In this document: one piece after another, positions 2,709 through 64,000 of the stretch
Numbering within the stretch: the first letter of the stretch is position 1
Layout: every line of letters starts with the position of its first letter
Assembly (NCBI GenBank): GCA_963840935.1
Contig: CAWJAS010000001.1
Location: forward strand, 448,875-512,874
Origin: Candidatus Magasanikiibacteriota bacterium
GTDB taxonomy: Bacteria; Patescibacteriota; Patescibacteriia; Magasanikbacterales; GWA2-37-8
Length of the DNA: 64,000 bases
Reading direction: 5' to 3'
Made by a program: the position numbers and the translations under genes
Notes under the pieces: generated by a model
The model's database searches: none
Seen by the model: only the letters and a program-made list of their open reading frames with translations
Told to the model about the DNA's origin: nothing

Positions 2709-3419
2709 ATGCCTGATATTTGGTTTAACTATTTATATCAACCGTTGCTCAATGTTTTGGTTTGGATTTATAATAATTTGGCCGGTCAAAATATGGGCTG
2801 GTCCGTTGTTATATTAACGGTTTTTTTGCGAATAGCGCTTCTTCCTTTTTCCATTATTTCTCAACGTGATATTGTGCGACAGAATAAAATTAAAGAGGAA
2901 GCCGCCAGAGCGGCCGATGTTTTTAAAAATGATTCTGTGGCGAGAAACGAAGAATTTCGCAAAATAATGAAAACAAATAAAATTTCACCTTGGGCGAAAG
3001 TGGTTGTTTTGGGAATTCAGTTGCTCGTATTAATTTTACTTTATCAAGTTTTTATAAGTGGAATATTTGGGGAGCGTTTGGTCAAGGTTTTGTATCCGTC
3101 AATCGGTTTTCCCGGCGCCATAAATAATGATTTTTTCGGTTTTAACATCGGAGAATCGCATAGTTTATTCTGGGCCGGATTGGTAGCAATATATTTGATG
3201 GCGGCAAATTTGATTGAAAAGATAGGAAGTAAACAATGGGAACGGTCAGAGGCTGTTTTTTTCATATTATTTCCCTTGTTTGTGTTTATTGTTTTGTGGC
3301 TTTTGCCGATCGCCAAAGCTCTCTTCATCTTGACTAGTATGATATTTTCTGATATATTGACGCTTGGCCGTCTTGCCTTGGTCCAACCGGAAAAAACACC
3401 GGAAAGCAAGCCTGCATAA
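2709..3419 (+). CDS. yidC: YidC/Oxa1-family membrane protein insertase (short form)
   Basis: N-terminal LNxLxWIYNNLxGxNxGWSVVILTVFLRIALLPF helix region typical of YidC; multiple TM segments. Confidence 0.7.
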   Translation: MPDIWFNYLYQPLLNVLVWIYNNLAGQNMGWSVVILTVFLRIALLPFSIISQRDIVRQNKIKEEAARAADVFKNDSVARNEEFRKIMKTNKISPWAKVVVLGIQLLVLILLYQVFISGIFGERLVKVLYPSIGFPGAINNDFFGFNIGESHSLFWAGLVAIYLMAANLIEKIGSKQWERSEAVFFILFPLFVFIVLWLLPIAKALFILTSMIFSDILTLGRLALVQPEKTPESKPA

Positions 3420-3430
3420 CACATATTTAT

Positions 3431-4009
3431 ATGGGTGGAGATTCACTGGATAAATTAATGTATAGTTTTGTCGTTGAGGATGTTCTCAAGGGTTTTTTTA
3501 TTCACGTTCCGCCCGGGTATGTTGCTTGTGTTTATGATTTGGGCAGGGGAGTCTTAAAAAAAGTTTTAACCCCGGGCCTTCATTTAAAAATTCCTTTTTG
3601 GCAAAAAGCCAAATTATTTAACACTCAAACGCTTGAATACAGTATTTCCCGCCAGTTTAAGAGCGAATTGGCTCGCGCTTTGGGCGATATTCCGATTGCC
3701 GCCATAACCATGGATAACAAAAGAGTCGGAGTTGAAGGGACAATTTTGCTTCGTCTGGATGTTCACCAGGTTCCGTTAATTTGGCAGACAATCGGGGAAG
3801 ATTTTGTTGAAAAGATTGTTAGGCCCACAATCAGAAGCAGAATAAGAATGGTTTTTTCCCGTTTTAATTATCAAGACATAATTGGGCCCAGAAGAGATGA
3901 AGTGGAAGAAATGCTTAAAGAAGAATTGGAAAATATTTTTTATCCGAGGGGTATTTATGTTGAAAACGTTTTGTTAAGTGAAATACAAATAATTGTCGGC
4001 AAGGAATAA
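3431..4009 (+). CDS. SPFH/Band-7 (prohibitin/HflC-like) domain protein
   Basis: SPFH-domain-like sequence (PGYVACVYDLGRGV...LHLKIPFWQKAK...). Confidence 0.6.
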   Translation: MGGDSLDKLMYSFVVEDVLKGFFIHVPPGYVACVYDLGRGVLKKVLTPGLHLKIPFWQKAKLFNTQTLEYSISRQFKSELARALGDIPIAAITMDNKRVGVEGTILLRLDVHQVPLIWQTIGEDFVEKIVRPTIRSRIRMVFSRFNYQDIIGPRRDEVEEMLKEELENIFYPRGIYVENVLLSEIQIIVGKE

Positions 4010-5043: not shown

Positions 5044-5589
5044 ATGTTTGGAAAAAATAAAATAATCAACGACGACGTCACTGACGCATTGGTTAGGGAT
5101 GATACAGCGCCGGCGGAAGAAACGGCAGAATCGGTTGGTTGTGAAAACTGCGCTCGATTGAATGAAGAAATGGAAAAATTTAAAATTGGCTGGCAACGCG
5201 CTTTGGCGGATTACCAAAATTTGCAAAAAGAAACTGTCGCTCGACGCGTTGAATGGGCACGAATGAGTGAACAGCAAATTATTGAGGAATTTATTCCGGT
5301 ATATGAGAATTTAAAAATGTCGCTTGATAGCTCGAATTGCGAGAACGAAAATAATCCATGGCTTAATGGCGTAAAACTTGTTTTGAAACAATTCGCGGAT
5401 ATTTTGAAGTCTCACGACGTGGAAGAAATACAAGCGGTAGGTAAAAAGTTTGACCCAAAATTTCATGAAGCCATTGGTGAAGAAAAAGTGGAAAAGAAAA
5501 AATCAGGAGAGATAATAAAAGTAATTAACGGCGGATATATTATGGGTGACAAAGTGATAAAAGCGGCAAAAGTAATTGTCGCAAAATAA
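5044..5589 (+). CDS. grpE: Nucleotide exchange factor GrpE
   Basis: GrpE coiled-coil and C-terminal beta domain similarity. Position between hrcA and dnaK. Confidence 0.9.
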   Translation: MFGKNKIINDDVTDALVRDDTAPAEETAESVGCENCARLNEEMEKFKIGWQRALADYQNLQKETVARRVEWARMSEQQIIEEFIPVYENLKMSLDSSNCENENNPWLNGVKLVLKQFADILKSHDVEEIQAVGKKFDPKFHEAIGEEKVEKKKSGEIIKVINGGYIMGDKVIKAAKVIVAK

Positions 5590-5661
5590 ATAAATCAGGA
5601 CTTATAAATATTAATTTTTCTGCCTTACACTGAGCAGTGTTTGGTAGAAGGAGGTTTAAAT

Positions 5662-6105
5662 ATGAGTATTATTCGTTGGTCTCCAATGCTAGACCCGTTT
5701 TCTGAGATGGAGGAAGCGTTTAATCGTTTGCCTTCATTTGGTGGTGGACAATCACTGAAAGCTTTTGTGCCTGCAATGGATGTTTATGAAACCGATAAAG
5801 CAGTGGTGGTGGAAGCTCCGCTTGCCGGTGTAAACCCGGATGAAGTGAAGGTTAGCGTGGAAAAAGGTGTTTTAACGATTCAGGGCGAATCAAAAAAAGA
5901 ACACGAAGTGGAAGAAAAAAATTATTACAGAAAGGAAGTCCGTTCAGGCGCCTTTTATCGCCAAGTTGCTCTACCGGCTCCGGTTATGGAAGATAAAGTG
6001 TCGGCTGAATTCGAAGATGGTATGTTAAGAATTACATGTCCCAAATCCTCGCCGGCAAAGGCAAAAACAGTAGATGTCAAAGTAATTAAGAAAAATAAAA
6101 AATAA
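5662..6105 (+). CDS. Small heat-shock protein, Hsp20/alpha-crystallin family
   Basis: Alpha-crystallin domain (AMDVYETDKAVVVEAPLAGVNPDEVKVSVEKGVLTIQGE...). SD GAAGGAGG upstream of the start. Confidence 0.88.
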   Translation: MSIIRWSPMLDPFSEMEEAFNRLPSFGGGQSLKAFVPAMDVYETDKAVVVEAPLAGVNPDEVKVSVEKGVLTIQGESKKEHEVEEKNYYRKEVRSGAFYRQVALPAPVMEDKVSAEFEDGMLRITCPKSSPAKAKTVDVKVIKKNKK

Positions 6106-6183
6106 TTTTTACCGTAGAACCGCGAATAGTCCGTTCGCGGTTATATCGGAAAAATAATTAATAATTTAAATAATTTTAGACTT

Positions 6184-48317: not shown

Positions 48318-48929
48318 ATGAATATTGATTTCAAAAATGTCATCAAACATTATGCCGGAAGAACAAATGAAAAAATGAAGGAGGTTTTAATGAGCCCGGA
48401 TGCTCCTGCGCCGGAAATTCATTATTATATGATTCGTGGCGGTAAAGACCAAAAAAACATTACCGTCTGGGAACCTGGTACAGTGAACGGCGAATATATT
48501 AAAACATATGGGCATTATCATGTGGGAGAACTTGATGAAACATACGAAATTTTGATGGGCGAGGGTGTTGCCTTACTTCAGAAATTAGCGGTTGATAATG
48601 AAGGGAATCCGATAGCTGATGTTGTTGAAGAATTTAAAGCCATAAAAGTAAAAGCAGGGGATAAAGTATATATGCCTACGGGTTTTGGCCATTTGCTCGC
48701 GAATACTTGCGAAACATATTTTGTAACAGCCGACAATAGTCCGGTTGATTTTGAAGACAGAGACCCTGCCGGTTTGCCGGGCCACGCTGATTATGAACCG
48801 GTAAAGAAAATGCGCGGGTTTGCCTATTACGTGATTGATCACGATGGTGAACCGGTTCTTGTAAAAAATGATTTGTATAAAGAAATAAAAAACACCGATT
48901 TTGGCGGTTTGCAGGTGATAAAAAAATAA
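48318..48929 (+). CDS. Cupin-type phosphoglucose isomerase-like protein (archaeal cPGI family)
   Basis: Matches the cPGI signatures TX3P...GXE...TXGHXH...EXY (TVWEPGTVNGEY-IKTYGHYHVGELDETYEI) and a P...H...N motif (MPTGFGHLLAN). Confidence 0.55.
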   Translation: MNIDFKNVIKHYAGRTNEKMKEVLMSPDAPAPEIHYYMIRGGKDQKNITVWEPGTVNGEYIKTYGHYHVGELDETYEILMGEGVALLQKLAVDNEGNPIADVVEEFKAIKVKAGDKVYMPTGFGHLLANTCETYFVTADNSPVDFEDRDPAGLPGHADYEPVKKMRGFAYYVIDHDGEPVLVKNDLYKEIKNTDFGGLQVIKK

Positions 48930-48951
48930 CAACTTGAAAATAAGTTGTTAT

Positions 48952-49138
48952 TCGTCGGGGTGACAGGACTTGGTCTCGACTCTCGTCGGCTTCCGCCTCC
49001 TCGGTCTGACCACCGCCTCGCGGTCGCGCCTCCCAAATAGTCGGCGCGACATCGCTCCGGCGTTCAAGTCCAAAAGCGACGCAAACTATTGCGTCGCTTC
49101 ATCCCTCCTCACTTTGTTCGTCGGGGTGACAGGACTTG
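48952..49138 (-). repeat. tRNA-flank structured element, copy 1, with its flanking 21-nt direct repeats TCGTCGGGGTGACAGGACTTG (48952-48972 and 49118-49138), which duplicate the 3' end of tRNA-Pro(CGG)
   Basis: Direct repeats read from the sequence. The internal 56-nt block at 49010-49065 is identical to a block in copy 2. GC-rich stems are present (GTCGCGCC...GGCGCGAC). Confidence 0.6.
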
Positions 49139-49194
49139 AACCTGCGGCCTCGTCGTCCCGAACGACGCGCTCTAGCCAACTGAGCTACACCCCG
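49121..49194 (-). tRNA. tRNA-Pro (anticodon CGG)
   Basis: Manual cloverleaf fold: 7-bp acceptor, D-arm GCTC/GAGC, anticodon stem CGTCG/CGACG with loop UUCGGGA, and a T-arm. 74 nt, no encoded CCA. Confidence 0.85.
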
Positions 49195-49280
49195 AATTGA
49201 ATGAAATCAGTATAGTAAATATATGGTCTATTGTCAACTGCGAACAATATAAAAAAGTAATATTTTTAGTGATATATTTT

Positions 49281-49310
49281 TCAACACTTCACCCTAGGGT
49301 GAAGTGTTGA
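49281..49310. other. Perfect 30-bp palindrome TCAACACTTCACCC-TA-GGGTGAAGTGTTGA in an AT-rich spacer
   Basis: Read directly from the sequence. Confidence 0.6.
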
Positions 49311-49336
49311 ATTTTGCTAACCTGAGGCATCGTTCA

Positions 49337-49608
49337 TCGGGCTAGCGGGACTCGAACCCGCGGTCTCATTTTTCACATTCTCCAATTTGTCGGGCTAGCG
49401 GGACTCGGCTTCGGCTCAAATTTTCTTCCGAAAATTTGGCCTAGCCACCGCCTCGCGGTCGCGCCTCCCAAATAGTCGGCGCGACATCGCTCCGGCGTTC
49501 TCGTCCCGACGCGAGCAAAACTATTTGCTCGCTCTACGCCCCCTCACTTCGTTCGTCGGGCTAGCGGGACTCGAACCCGCGGTCTCATTTTTCACATTCT
49601 CCAATTTG
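49337..49608 (-). repeat. Tandem array: 53-nt unit (tRNA-Pro 3' half plus 20-nt trailer) at 49337-49389, structured element copy 2 at 49390-49555, second 53-nt unit at 49556-49608, immediately followed by intact tRNA-Pro(GGG)
   Basis: The 33-nt tRNA 3' halves (49337-49369 and 49556-49588) are identical to tRNA-Pro(GGG) residues 49609-49641. Element copy 2 begins with a degenerate T-arm in which GGCTTCGGCT replaces GAACCCGCGG. Confidence 0.6.
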
Positions 49609-49682
49609 TCGGGCTAGCGGGACTCGAACCCGCGGTCTCATGCACCCCATGCATGCGCGATAGCCAACTTCGCTATAGCCCG
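49609..49682 (-). tRNA. tRNA-Pro (anticodon GGG)
   Basis: Manual cloverleaf fold: acceptor CGGGCTA/TAGCCCG, anticodon stem CATGC/GCATG with loop AUGGGGU (G37), T-arm GCGGG/CCCGC. 74 nt. Confidence 0.85.
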
Positions 49683-49800
49683 ACAAATTGTCCAATGTGA
49701 AAACCTGGGTTTTTCGGTTTGCTTCGCAAACATCTAAAAACCCGTTCTCGCCGTCGCGAGTGAAACTGTTCACTCGCTCGCTTTAAGCGACGGCTCAAAC

Positions 49801-49838
49801 CCCCATGCATGCGCGATAGCCAACTTCGCTATAGCCCG
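49801..49838 (-). repeat. Duplicate of the 5' 38 nt of tRNA-Pro(GGG) (acceptor 5' strand through the anticodon loop), about 118 nt upstream of the intact gene on the tRNA strand
   Basis: 38/38 identity with 49645-49682. The spacer contains a long hairpin (GCCGTCGC...GCGACGGC) followed by a T-run. Confidence 0.6.
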
Positions 49839-50003
49839 TTTGAGTGAGAGTAAAAAGCAAGAAAACTTGCATATTACCGAGCGAGGGCGGGTTATATGAA
49901 ATATAGCTCGGTACATGTATATTTTGGGCAATTTTAGCACATGTTTATTTTCTTTTCAAGCTTTTGGTTTTATGCTATAATATAGCTCTAATTACTATAT
50001 AAT

Positions 50004-51038
50004 ATGATTGATATAAATAAATACTTTCGAGAGGCGATAAAACAAGGCGCTTCAGATTTACATTTGGTTGGCGGTGAAATTCCCATGCTTCGTGTTCACG
50101 GCGAACTCAGTGAATTGGAGCAAAAACCAATGAATAACGCTTTTTTGAATAACGCCATATATAAAATTTTATCTCCGGTTCAGCAAAAAAAATACGAGGA
50201 ACACAAAGAGCTTGATTTTGCCTATGAAATTGATGGAATTCGTTTTAGAGTCAATTTGCACCAACAATCAGAAAATATCGGGTTGTCTGCTCGCGTTATT
50301 CCCATGGAAATTCCCACGCCGGAGGAATTGCGAATAGACGGCGAATTATTGGCATTGTCAGAAGCTTATGATGGCTTGGTTTTGGTTACCGGCCCAACCG
50401 GATGCGGAAAGTCGACCACCCTTGCTTGTTTAATTGAAGAAATTAATAAAAATAGAAAAGCGCACATCATCACCATTGAGGACCCGATTGAGTTTATGTT
50501 TAAAGATAAAAAAAGTTTGATTGAACAGCGTGAGGTCGGCAGGGATACTGATTCTTTTGCCTCGGCGCTTAAGCATGTTTTGCGTCAAGACCCCAATGTG
50601 ATTTTGGTTGGAGAAATGCGTGACCCGGAAACAATCGCCACGGTTTTGACTGCAGCTGAAACCGGTCATCTGGTATTTTCAACTTTACATACTCCGAGCG
50701 CCGCCGAAGCCGTAGAAAGAATCGTTGATGTTTTTGAGGGTCCAAAGCAAAAACAAATATTAATTCAGTTAGCGTCCGTATTGCGTGCTGTGGTTGCGCA
50801 GGATTTATTGCCGGCAAAAGGAGGCGGTAGAATTCCGGCCAGAGAAATACTTATTAATACTCCGGCTATCTCCAATTTAATAATGGAAAATAATATCTCT
50901 CAAATAAAATCAATGATTCAAATTGGAGCAAAAGAGGGTATGAGCACGATGGAAAATTCACTAAAAAAATTAGTTGATGAAAATTTAATTGATGAAGAAA
51001 TAGCTTATCGCAGAATGGGCAAGAGTAAAAAGATTTAA
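50004..51038 (+). CDS. pilT: Type IV pilus retraction ATPase PilT
   Basis: PilT N-terminal signature and Walker A GPTGCGKSTT. Asp box and His box present. Confidence 0.9.
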   Translation: MIDINKYFREAIKQGASDLHLVGGEIPMLRVHGELSELEQKPMNNAFLNNAIYKILSPVQQKKYEEHKELDFAYEIDGIRFRVNLHQQSENIGLSARVIPMEIPTPEELRIDGELLALSEAYDGLVLVTGPTGCGKSTTLACLIEEINKNRKAHIITIEDPIEFMFKDKKSLIEQREVGRDTDSFASALKHVLRQDPNVILVGEMRDPETIATVLTAAETGHLVFSTLHTPSAAEAVERIVDVFEGPKQKQILIQLASVLRAVVAQDLLPAKGGGRIPAREILINTPAISNLIMENNISQIKSMIQIGAKEGMSTMENSLKKLVDENLIDEEIAYRRMGKSKKI

Positions 51039-51039
51039 T

Positions 51040-52476
51040 ATGATGAGCGTGGAAAAAATATTAAAAAAAATTTCTACTGTTTCCAAAAAAAATAAAATTC
51101 CCGTTTATATTGTCGGTGGGTTCGTCAGAGATTTGATGATGGGAGTCCCTCAAAAAAAAGACATAGATTTTGTGATTGAAGGTAGTGGTATAAAATTTGC
51201 CGAACTGTTTGATGAATCCATGAAAAAAGTAGGTAGTTTGATTAAATTTTCTGATTTTGATACGGCCAGATATATTATTGATGATAAAAAAGGGGATAGC
51301 TTGATTTTGGAGTTCGCGGGGGCAAGAAGCGAATCATACACAGCGGAATCTCGCAAGCCAAAGGTGGTTTCAGCAACTCTTCAAAGTGATTTATCCAGAC
51401 GTGATTTTCGAATTAACGCCATGGCAGTTCCAGTTGAAGTGTATTCGGGAATAAAAAAACCGACTTTAGTTGAAATCAAAAAAAAATTAATTGACCCTTT
51501 TGATGGAACACAAGACATAAAGAATAAGATTTTGGTGACGCCTCTTGATCCAGACCAGACATTTAGTGATGACCCACTGCGCATGTTGCGGGCTGTTCGT
51601 TTTGCCGCTCAATTGAATTTTGGTATTGATAAGAAAGTTTTGGAATCAATCCATAAAAATTGCAATCGTCTTAAAATTGTTTCAGCCGAAAGAATTCAAG
51701 AAGAATTATTCAAATTAATGTCTTGTGTCAGCCCGTCAGTAGGTTTAATTTTAATGTTTCAGACCGGTCTTTTGGATACTATTTTGCCTGAAGTGTCCGC
51801 GCTCGACGGGGTTGAAGAGGTTTATGGGCACCAGCATAAAAATAATTTATTTCACACATTCAAGGTTGTTGATAATATCGCGGAAAGGTCAGATAAAATT
51901 CTACTCCGGCTCGCCGGTTTATTTCATGACATTGGCAAAACATCAACAAAAAAATTTCTGCCTAAAATTGGATGGACTTTTTACCAGCATGAACACGTCG
52001 GCCGAAAAATGGTATCTCAAATAGCCAAACGCCTGCATTTGTCGAATGATGACGCCGATTATTTGCGCAAATTAGTCAGATGGCACCAACAGCCGATTTC
52101 ACTCATGGACGAGGGGATTACCGATTCGGCCGTAAGGCGAATAATTGTAAATTTGGGTGATGAACTTGATGATTTGCTTATTTTGGGTCGTTCAGATATT
52201 ACCACCGGCAATCCATCAAAAAAATCAATTCGTTTAAAAAATTACGATAAATTGGAAAAACGCATTGCGGAGGTTCTTGAGAAAGATAAACTTCGCGCTT
52301 TTCAATCACCGGTCAGAGGCGATGAAATAATGAAGGTTTGCGGGTTGAATGCCGGCCCGATCGTTGGTAAAATAAAAAAAGAAATAGAAGAAGCGATTCT
52401 TGACGGAATTATTCCAAATGAGTATCAACCGGCCTATGATTATATGGTCAAAATAAAAAATAAATATTTAAAATAA
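51040..52476 (+). CDS. cca: CCA-adding tRNA nucleotidyltransferase / poly(A) polymerase with HD domain
   Basis: Pol-beta head (GGFVRDLMMG...DIDF). HD motif (HDIGK). Confidence 0.85.
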   Translation: MMSVEKILKKISTVSKKNKIPVYIVGGFVRDLMMGVPQKKDIDFVIEGSGIKFAELFDESMKKVGSLIKFSDFDTARYIIDDKKGDSLILEFAGARSESYTAESRKPKVVSATLQSDLSRRDFRINAMAVPVEVYSGIKKPTLVEIKKKLIDPFDGTQDIKNKILVTPLDPDQTFSDDPLRMLRAVRFAAQLNFGIDKKVLESIHKNCNRLKIVSAERIQEELFKLMSCVSPSVGLILMFQTGLLDTILPEVSALDGVEEVYGHQHKNNLFHTFKVVDNIAERSDKILLRLAGLFHDIGKTSTKKFLPKIGWTFYQHEHVGRKMVSQIAKRLHLSNDDADYLRKLVRWHQQPISLMDEGITDSAVRRIIVNLGDELDDLLILGRSDITTGNPSKKSIRLKNYDKLEKRIAEVLEKDKLRAFQSPVRGDEIMKVCGLNAGPIVGKIKKEIEEAILDGIIPNEYQPAYDYMVKIKNKYLK

Positions 52477-63326: not shown

Positions 63327-63358
63327 ACACCCCGAGTAATTGGGGTGTTTTTGTTTTG
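63327..63358 (+). terminator. Rho-independent terminator (ACACCCC-loop-GGGGTGT followed by TTTTTGTTTT)
   Basis: Read directly from the sequence. Confidence 0.7.
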
Positions 63359-63582
63359 TGACCCGGTCCCGAAGGGATCCCTTTGGGACTGGGATTCGGC
63401 TTCGGCTAAAATTTTCTTCCGAAAATTTTGCCTAGCCACCTTCGCCAGTTGGCGAATCGCGGTTTGGCTCGCCCGCAAGCTCGCCAAACATCGCTCCGGC
63501 GTTCTCATCCCAACGCGAGCAAAGCAGTTTGCTCGCTTCCGGGTCAAACAAAAAATCCCTTTACAGGGATGTATTTGTTTTG

Positions 63583-63590
<8 letters not shown>
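63350..63590 (-). repeat. tRNA-flank structured element, copy 3 (interior 63367-63573), bounded by 17-nt direct repeats TTTGTTTTGTGACCCGG (63350-63366 and 63574-63590) derived from the 3' end of tRNA-Lys
   Basis: Shares the AAATTTTC-TTCC-GAAAATTT hairpin and the CATCGCTCCGGCGTTCTC...GCGAGCAAA...TTTGCTCGC module with copy 2, with compensatory changes. Confidence 0.6.
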
Positions 63591-63655
<65 letters not shown>

Positions 63656-63782
63656 TTATGTAGTTCTATTATTATAAAATTTTTTTGAATGCTAATGTCG
63701 TATTTATTAATTGTATGACCGGTAGCGAAGCTGGAAGCTGCCGTGCCCCGCACAGTGAGCCGATAGGCGAACTGTTGCTGGG

Positions 63783-63799
63783 GAGCTACCAGGCCTTAT
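63783..63799 (-). repeat. 17-nt duplicate of the tRNA-Lys 5' end (GAGCTACCAGGCCTTAT on +) lying about 125 nt upstream of the gene on the tRNA strand
   Basis: Exact match to 63643-63659. Confidence 0.55.
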
Positions 63800-64000
63800 A
63801 ATAAAAAATAGACAATTTACAGGGAAAATGATACACTATATGCAGAAAAAAATCAAGGGGGAGAAAAAATGGTGTATAAATCATTTATTTTTGAATTATG
63901 TTGGATAAAAAGTTTTTTGCTAAAATTAGGTCAATTTTATTAAATTACTCCAAAAAAAGACGAGAAATAATTAAAATTTCCGGCGATGCCCAACAGCTTT

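Follow-up and report, generated by a model that had tools for sequence, protein, structure and literature searches.

What are the GC-rich blocks that stand immediately 3' of the tRNA genes in a 64-kb stretch of a Candidatus Magasanikiibacteriota genome (contig CAWJAS010000001.1, positions 448,875 to 512,874; hereafter the window)? All three tRNA genes of this stretch, tRNA-Pro(CGG), tRNA-Pro(GGG) and tRNA-Lys(UUU), are on the minus strand, so that 3' of a tRNA means toward lower coordinates, and all three carry on that side a GC-rich element of 150-230 nucleotides (nt), here called elements 1, 2 and 3, whose own 3' end repeats the 3' part of the neighbouring tRNA from T-loop nt 56 onward. The reading that we prefer, and to which we give about an even chance of being correct, is that these elements belong to an undescribed family of structured, tRNA-like RNA genes that are appended 3' of tRNA genes in Patescibacteria (the candidate phyla radiation, CPR), that originated by duplicative insertion and whose fold is under selection. 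The family is absent from Rfam 15 and from the literature that we searched, and is apparently new.

A first-pass annotation of this DNA had pointed out GC-rich blocks 3' of both tRNA-Pro genes, and the composition bears this out: the bin 49001-50000 is 49.8% GC, against 33-43% in the remaining 1-kb bins of the window. The second copy of the tRNA 3' end that it described at each block is also present, as 22 nt at tRNA-Pro(CGG) and as an 18-nt tRNA segment within a 78-nt repeat at tRNA-Pro(GGG). The 56-nt core that it reported as identical between the two blocks (49010-49065 and 49445-49500) is exact and is the longest identical block, and a 29-mer within this core occurs twice against zero expected. 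It had counted three copies; a third genuine copy exists, at tRNA-Lys (63390-63512), outside the region that it had described. The 17-mer ACATCGCTCCGGCGTTC is common to all three elements (three matches against 0.08 expected), which can be aligned end to end in the tRNA sense. No credible open reading frame (ORF) was found in the element blocks of the window, in agreement with the earlier statement that they encode nothing. The conserved GGAGCGAUG was considered as coding sequence and rejected, since length variants of 7 nt break the reading frame and ORFs are absent. In the window the three true tRNAs are the only ones called by ARAGORN and Rfam, and the single tmRNA match is an 18-nt T-arm fragment.

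The fold of each element gives a strongly negative z score against shuffled sequences: -5.4 for element 1 (48952-49119), -6.8 for element 2 (49389-49555) and -7.6 for element 3 (63353-63581). Read in the tRNA sense, the order is a linker, a strand complementary to the tRNA acceptor, hairpin 1, a complement of tRNA nt 58-63, the core and the duplicated tRNA segment. The linker is GAAC(A/G)AAGUGA in the two Pro elements; the acceptor-complementary strand of complete copies is 7 nt long and complements the acceptor 3' strand; hairpin 1 has 9 bp and follows that strand. The compensatory stems quoted in the first-pass annotation, GCGACGCAA/TTGCGTCGC and GCGAGCAAA/TTTGCTCGC, represent one and the same 9-bp hairpin as it stands in each of the two copies. 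The conserved core of ~90 nt has two arms, P2-P3 and P4-P6 (GAACGCCGGAGCGAUG ... CCGCGAGGCGGUG ... GAAGC), and lies within a module of ~105 nt that forms a three-way junction and uses the duplicated tRNA segment in its closing helix. Because C56 and R57 of the duplicated segment pair into P4 while nt 58-63 form P1, the junction is built in part from the duplicated tRNA piece.

The family is large. A metagenome scan with a specific pattern gave at least 120 loci, a covariance model (R1) was built from 41 copies, and family statistics were taken from 143 modules in 139 CPR loci, among the matches listed. Within the window R1 matches the three elements and no other site, and it has more than 140 matches in Patescibacteria contigs, mostly 3' of tRNAs and with abundant compensatory changes, which strongly supports the tRNA-linked family of structured noncoding RNAs that was one of the explanations offered earlier. 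In a 15-mer scan of genome contigs, ~110 of the 120 matches listed were due to chance in GC-rich genomes; blastn left 10 true CPR loci, every one just 3' of a tRNA. Their host genomes are Magasanikbacteria, Komeilibacteria, a metagenome-assembled genome (MAG) labelled Saccharibacteria, several "Patescibacteria group" MAGs and one MAG labelled Gammaproteobacteria. The label of this last "uncultured Gammaproteobacteria" MAG (CAYOXC01; loci L005 and L026), which holds two modules, looks wrong, and its contig CAYOXC010000001 (L005) also encodes a CPR-type cupin glucose-6-phosphate isomerase (GPI).

Placement relative to tRNAs is regular across the sample. No more than 450 nt separates 121 of the 143 modules from a same-strand tRNA on their 5' side. 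About 18 isotypes carry the element, and all isotypes sampled more than once are represented; the only ones without a module are those of the single tRNA-Trp and the single tRNA-Tyr of these contigs, in which 85 further tRNAs also lack one. In nearly every copy nt 56 is the first position of the repeat, which lies 87-94 nt from the GAACGCC motif. A recognisable tRNA is not always present: upstream of several orphan modules (L134, L199, L220, L232 and L246) neither ARAGORN nor Rfam recognises one. Intact modules persist beside decayed or unrecognisable tRNAs. Common to the orphan modules are two motifs, GGGCGGAA on the upstream side and GTTCNAAC..TCGT, and at L232 42 nt of trailer and terminator sequence are perfectly duplicated while the upstream tRNA-like part is unrecognisable. 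In another locus, L127, a different insert of ~165 nt (1730-1915) lies 3' of tRNA-Leu(GAG) with a 20-nt repeat starting in the T-loop, which suggests that other families follow the same insertion logic; the same locus (2140-2430) has a tRNA whose anticodon loop is interrupted by an intervening sequence of ~235 nt that probably represents a group I intron.

The alignment of the family carries a clear signal of pairing. RNAalifold gives 33 consensus pairs, 22 of them with double compensatory changes, and in the named structure 95.2% of cells are paired, compared with 77% after column shuffling, where none of 500 shuffles attained the observed figure; the earlier argument for selection on structure over neutral decay is upheld by these figures. 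Sliding the partners by 1-3 columns lowers pairing to 35-42%, and the covariation score is 0.50 against 0.17. The P2 helix covaries (CGCC:GGCG, CGGC:GCCG, CAGC:GCUG) in divergent copies that were found by the model alone. Outside P1, G-U pairs outnumber A-C mismatches 39:14 when the sequence is read in the tRNA sense, a bias that favours a sense-strand RNA. Identity between the distal copy and the tRNA is 77-100% over nt 56-74; beyond the tRNA end it drops first to ~50% and then to ~30%.

Copies do not group by genome or by isotype: module identity at variable columns is 60% within a contig, 63% between contigs and 64% within an isotype. The exceptions to high divergence within contigs are a 97% pair at L152 (Arg/Lys) and mosaic pairs of 75-82% in the window. 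A recent burst and strict vertical descent by isotype were both considered as the general history and rejected, given clustering by neither genome nor isotype. Most copies of a genome are old and far apart in sequence but have kept the fold, which suggests selection on the RNA. The pattern describes an old family whose copies are maintained one by one, with duplication or gene conversion from time to time, unlike a recent burst of a decaying parasite.

What kind of RNA would this be? The duplicated segment folds back onto both complementary strands to give an acceptor/T-stem helix. In the modelled fold, an element with the acceptor-like strand is tRNA-like: it has an acceptor stem, a single hairpin where a tRNA has its D and anticodon arms, and a counterpart of the T-stem with the junction as its loop. 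The features of the tRNA-like class were found for the acceptor helix stacked on the T-stem helix and for the discriminator, and P1 has five covarying pairs. The discriminator follows the acceptor-type helix, and so does CCA if it is encoded in the tRNA gene. The ~90-nt junction core stands where the distal junction would have its T-loop, so no intact T-stem/T-loop/T-stem is present. The acceptor-like strand has a fixed position, 0-3 nt ahead of hairpin 1, and complements all seven positions in 22% of copies (mismatched-tRNA controls, 0.2%) and six or more of them in 39% (controls, 7%). In element 3 it reads GACCCGG, the perfect Watson-Crick complement of CCGGGUC. At the window tRNA-Lys and at an initiator tRNA-Met it repairs G-U or C-A pairs of the tRNA itself, which indicates that the strand complements the 3' strand and was not copied from the 5' strand. 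The linker motif and the Pro-specific GAGGGAUG of element 1 also occur in L234 and L240, and a specific 5' part is common to Pro-associated elements of three genomes. The features of the three elements are collected in Table 1.

Table 1. Coordinates of the three host tRNA genes and of the parts of elements 1 to 3 (positions counted from the first nucleotide of the window).
Feature	Positions	Strand	Basis
tRNA-Pro(CGG), intact host tRNA of element 1	49121..49194	-	ARAGORN; Rfam tRNA 66.5 bits
Element 1, 5' part: linker GAACAAAGUGA, acceptor-like strand GGGAUGA (49099-49105), hairpin 1 (49076-49097)	49074..49120	-	sequence, fold
Element 1, three-way-junction module; 3'-most nt are tRNA nt 56-64 of the distal repeat	48964..49073	-	model R1, 101 bits, E 9e-24
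Element 1, distal 22-nt copy of the tRNA-Pro(CGG) 3' end (nt 56 to discriminator, plus 4 nt)	48951..48972	-	identical to 49118-49139
tRNA-Pro(GGG), intact host tRNA of element 2	49609..49682	-	ARAGORN, Rfam
Proximal copy of the 78-nt direct repeat: tRNA nt 56-73, 21-nt trailer, older tRNA fragment (nt 44-73)	49549..49626	-	repeat search, 99% identity
Element 2, 5' part: linker GAACGAAGUGA, acceptor-like strand (49534-49542), hairpin 1 (49511-49532)	49509..49555	-	sequence, fold
Element 2, three-way-junction module	49399..49508	-	model R1, 103.6 bits, E 2e-24
Distal copy of the 78-nt direct repeat, followed by a terminator (49280-49311)	49330..49407	-	repeat search
tRNA-Lys(UUU), host tRNA of element 3	63583..63655	-	ARAGORN, Rfam
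Element 3, 5' part: small hairpin with T-run, acceptor-like strand GACCCGG (63539-63545), hairpin 1 (63515-63536)	63513..63582	-	
Element 3, three-way-junction module with an extra 13-nt insertion	63390..63512	-	model R1, 71.5 bits, E 4e-16
Element 3, distal copy of the tRNA-Lys 3' end: CGAAUCCCAG, 22-nt inserted hairpin (63367-63388), CCGGGUCAC plus 8 nt of trailer	63350..63398	-	

The inserted hairpin of element 3, UCCCAAAGGGAUCCCUUCGGGA in the tRNA sense, is perfect and splits the distal tRNA-Lys repeat between the T-stem 3' and acceptor 3' strands.

The signals around the window genes are consistent with tRNA and element forming one unit. A strong sigma70-like promoter (TTGACA-17-TATACT, 49237-49209) precedes tRNA-Pro(CGG), a second promoter precedes the tRNA-Pro(GGG) unit, and the terminator hairpins of the window sit beyond the distal repeats (an intrinsic-terminator-like hairpin at ~48921-48949 in the case of element 1). 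Shared promoters and terminators, together with the finding that only 12 of 92 distinct spacers between tRNA and module contain a terminator-like hairpin, make it likely from the sequence that the element is co-transcribed with its tRNA as a rule. These observations also bear on a reading in which the fold acts at the DNA level, as a single-stranded DNA (ssDNA) site of recombination or replication comparable to integron attC or the attP of phage CTX, with P1 mimicking half of the T-arm duplex. P1 does reproduce the duplex sequence of tRNA gene nt 56-63, and some copies lie behind terminator-like hairpins; against this stand the promoters and terminators shared with the tRNA, the excess of G-U over A-C, the GNRA-type loops and tandem G-A motifs typical of RNA, and the lack of an associated recombinase. 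We see only a slim chance that this reading is correct.

On the preferred reading, that of a tRNA-like RNA gene, the element in the window would be transcribed from the tRNA's own promoter, within the tRNA precursor. Its duplicated tRNA segment would pair with the two complementary strands to make a tRNA-like helix with the three-way junction as T-loop, and through this mimicry a stable RNA of ~170 nt may be released together with the tRNA by RNase P, RNase Z and the CCA-adding enzyme. The function would reside in the conserved junction; a protein-binding platform is our best guess. The family would have arisen by duplicative insertion at T-loop position 55/56, the target being copied from nt 56 to a variable point past the tRNA end, and would still spread occasionally, most present copies being old paralogues held by selection on the fold. 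In the window, a PolyA_pol/HD-domain protein (51040-52476; of the CCA-adding enzyme type, as judged by synteny with locus L252) is encoded two genes from the tRNA-Pro cluster, probably by coincidence.

Several points weigh against this reading. The search pattern fixed two motifs, which biased the sample toward canonical copies and made the invariance of those motifs partly a matter of construction. About 60% of copies are without a good acceptor-like strand and hairpin 1 is absent in some, so that a full tRNA mimic is not obligatory. A terminator-like hairpin separates tRNA and module in 13% of the distinct spacers. Processing by RNase P and RNase Z and the discrete stable RNA are predicted from shape alone. 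Finally, the fold could also be kept through selection for self-propagation.

This last point leads to the main rival, a selfish, guide-bearing element. In this account the family is a non-autonomous, tRNA-specific mobile element, analogous to a short interspersed nuclear element (SINE) or a miniature inverted-repeat transposable element (MITE), that folds as RNA or ssDNA for its own propagation and has no host function. The strands complementary to nt 56-63 and 66-72 would serve as guides in the choice of the cognate tRNA gene, an enzyme acting in trans would nick at 55/56, and the copied-in element would bring a target duplication of variable length by which the tRNA is restored each time. 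We consider this a real possibility, though on the unlikely side. The form of the repeats fits it well, since their left end is fixed at nt 56 and their right end is variable, with repeats of 36-83 nt that include terminators at other loci. The 78-nt repeat of element 2 runs from C56 through the tRNA end, the trailer and an older fragment, as expected of a target duplication and not of cargo carried by the element. Also in favour are a tandem copy at L156, the near-identical Arg/Lys pair at L152, the mosaic window copies, a long near-perfect repeat with perfectly matched guide strands at L147, and variability at the 5' end (acceptor-like strand and hairpin 1 present or not) beside a 3' module that is always kept. 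Variable-length target duplication and 5' variability are features of the SINE type.

The syntenic locus L252, from a relative, adds an empty site. Its gene order is that of the window (FdtA, epimerase, GPI, tRNAs, PilT-like ATPase and a gene resembling that of the CCA enzyme), and its GPI is 78% identical. Both tRNA-Pro genes are present at L252, no module was detected there even with the R1 filters off, and the tRNA-Pro(GGG) trailer leads directly into the terminator; the module is present, by contrast, in contigs whose GPI is 93% identical. The element is thus gained or lost at orthologous sites, and loss by recombination between the repeats is a possible cause of the absence in L252. Taken together, the trailer and terminator within the repeats and the empty syntenic site argue for duplicative insertion at the T-loop rather than for integration at attachment (att) sites. 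At L252 a small GIY-YIG gene (3126-3470, minus strand) follows tRNA-Pro(CGG); the sequence ahead of this gene, GUCGAAUGCCCUGAGCGA..., is similar to the module's 5' motif.

Other evidence speaks against a mobile element. Clustering of the 676 ORFs within 1.5 kb of the 143 modules revealed no enriched neighbour protein family, an integrase-like cluster included, and none of these neighbour ORFs links a transposase, an integrase or a reverse transcriptase to the copies. Group II introns are reported to be absent from Patescibacteria (PMC13011429). The elements have no 3' A-tail and no terminal inverted repeats: a comparison with MITEs failed because the inverted repeats are internal hairpins or the leader/trailer pair and not termini, and because the duplications are variable (18-83 nt). 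Copies are old and diverged with a fold kept by compensatory changes, which is unusual for decaying non-autonomous elements, and no truncated modules were found. The miniature integrase-dependent mobile element proposed in the first-pass annotation accordingly survives in part: syntenic presence and absence and repeats that resemble target duplications and include the trailer agree with mobility, whereas dependence on an integrase is not supported, none being nearby.

Homing-endonuclease-like genes are dispersed around these tRNA loci, which is in keeping with mobility; the scattered neighbours comprise a helix-turn-helix (HTH) family with a LAGLIDADG-like motif, GIY-YIG, LAGLIDADG and YraN-like genes. 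At L052 an ORF (5457-6149) without an integrase domain lies between tRNA-Glu and the module. This HTH-family ORF was considered as the partner in an autonomous version of the element and rejected, as its other loci have no module and Pfam shows no nuclease or recombinase domain. Its CPR-wide family of ~230 amino acids, with an N-terminal HTH, an "LYWGEGY" motif and no Pfam domain, directly adjoins tRNAs in many CPR contigs, among them L052, L121, L124 and L127.

The guide strands also allow a bolder reading, in which each element is an RNA-guided system dedicated to one tRNA. Guides and junction would either direct the element's own insertion at 55/56 of the cognate tRNA gene, like a programmable SINE, or, as a ribozyme or platform, supply a damaged tRNA with the spare 3' segment in the manner of a repair kit; a related idea is an aminoacylatable minihelix with a non-ribosomal role. 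We hold this to be unlikely. Less probable again is an intron-like or repair ribozyme, in which GGGAUUCGAAC would align tRNA nt 53-55 with the spare nt 56-76 and the junction would cleave or ligate, so that the distal 3' segment is spliced onto the tRNA body or replaces a damaged tRNA 3' part. The strand before the core is antisense to nt 56-63, and the conserved GAA(C) that follows could pair with U54, U55 and G53; the core sequence is highly conserved, as ribozyme cores are, orphan modules have no recognisable upstream tRNA, and group I introns are common in Patescibacteria tRNA genes, at position 35/36 (PMC13011429). Splicing is unneeded, however, given the intact upstream tRNA, and in divergent copies GAA can be followed by C, A or G. 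Rfam 15 gave no match beyond tRNA in the window or the 10 related loci, nothing relevant in 48700-50100 at E values up to 10, where ribozymes and introns are also without a match, and no Intron_gpI match; the tRNA upstream is uninterrupted. We think this reading very improbable.

The first-pass annotation had taken the repeats for a classic attL/attR footprint of integration and had named, among its candidate explanations of the blocks, a conserved arm-site scaffold left behind by integrative elements; neither is supported. Internally deleted integrative elements or prophages, reduced to attL/attR and arm-site remnants, are largely refuted as an explanation, and we leave them next to no probability. 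It is true that the direct repeats come from the tRNA 3' part and start in the T-loop, where a class of integrases described by Williams in 2002 reportedly crosses over, and tRNA fragments from diverged alleles in L091 and L114 could be read in the same way. No integrase is present in or near any copy, however, and no integrase-like cluster, whether of the tyrosine type, whose presence close to the copies had been raised, or of the serine type, shows up among the 676 neighbouring ORFs. Viral contigs yielded no real copies: of two pattern scans, one gave 0 matches and the other four chance matches in GC-rich contigs, with no R1 match and no tRNA. One family occupies ~18 isotypes, each copy with the sequence of its own neighbour, and the duplicated segment is base-paired in the fold. 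The distal T-loop is a 90-nt RNA junction that occupies the place of the intact T-loop of an att core, covariation shows selection on pairing, and the repeats take in the host-specific trailer.

Inserts are also present on the 5' side of two of the window tRNAs. An exact 38-nt copy of tRNA-Pro(GGG) nt 1-37 lies 5' of that gene (49801-49838, equal to 49645-49682, minus strand), and between the two is a GC-rich, structured insert of 118 nt (49683-49800; z = -4.6) that differs from the family and that model R1 does not match. It mirrors the 3' elements, and its junction falls at 37/38 of the anticodon loop. The final 20 nt of this insert (49683-49703) are 89% complementary to the tRNA-Pro(GGG) trailer (49589-49608), and the leader/trailer helix so formed would enclose the tRNA; in the syntenic L252 the trailer is present and the leader absent at tRNA-Pro(GGG). 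On the 5' side of tRNA-Lys stand a second copy of the first 13 nt of the gene, together with 3 leader nt (63785-63800, minus strand), and an insert of ~128 nt (region 63657-63800) with a GC-rich 5' half and its junction in the D-stem. Similar 5' fragments stand ahead of tRNA-Val in L005 and L127 and of tRNA-Asp in L091.

If our reading of these elements as tRNA-like RNA genes is confirmed, a large, phylum-wide family of structured RNAs, situated at a sizeable minority of Patescibacteria tRNA genes, has been missed by standard annotation. It would represent a new architecture of tRNA mimicry, in which the T-loop has become a three-way junction and the acceptor and T-stem come from the neighbouring tRNA, and an integrase-free route of insertion into essential tRNA genes. 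Because Patescibacteria genomes are tiny, noncoding sequence that is retained in them is unlikely to be junk, and through the family the RNA biology of an uncultivated radiation, its tRNA processing included, can be approached by concrete tests. Duplicated tRNA ends of this kind may also mislead genomic-island tools that rely on tRNA fragments. Its wide distribution, its strong conservation and its lack of annotation make the family one of high interest.

Published work that we found concerns group I introns in Patescibacteria tRNA genes and rRNA insertions; literature searches returned nothing on T-loop or 3'-appended elements, or on a tRNA-like RNA, in this phylum. Among better-known systems, the element in part resembles T-loop integrative elements, tRNA mimics and SINEs, and it departs from each in defining features. 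Integrative elements and islands that use the T-loop, and their deleted derivatives, the cis-mobilizable elements (CIMEs), leave the same repeat from the T-loop to the 3' end, a restored upstream tRNA and a terminator displaced downstream. In our case, by contrast, the insert is 150-230 nt and without an integrase, a single family stands at nearly all isotypes, the repeat is variable and can take in the trailer, and the distal T-loop is a conserved, covarying RNA junction.

Introns of tRNA genes share either the phylum (group I introns at 35/36 in Patescibacteria; PMC13011429) or the loop (the non-canonical T-loop introns of archaea), whereas the element has neither a group I core nor a bulge-helix-bulge, accompanies an uninterrupted tRNA and contains a module of ~105 nt. 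With tRNA-derived SINEs and target-primed insertion it has in common a short, noncoding, tRNA-related sequence, target duplications of variable length and a variable 5' end. It differs from SINEs in its bacterial host, in that its tRNA-derived part is the 3' end of the target and not an internal promoter, in having neither an A-rich tail nor a known reverse transcriptase partner, and in the age and structural conservation of its copies.

The tRNA-like RNAs (the tRNA-like domain of tmRNA, the bacterial Y RNA YrlA, viral tRNA-like structures, mascRNA and the t-elements of plant mitochondria) display the same mimicry of acceptor and T-stem with an extra domain grafted on. In tmRNA and YrlA the extra domain leaves from the anticodon side, whereas in the family described here it leaves from the T-loop. 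Our elements further differ from tRNA-like RNAs in that their acceptor and T-stem are borrowed from the adjacent tRNA gene, in their multiple copies per genome and in having no Rfam match. Engagement of the tRNA-processing enzymes is probably common to both.

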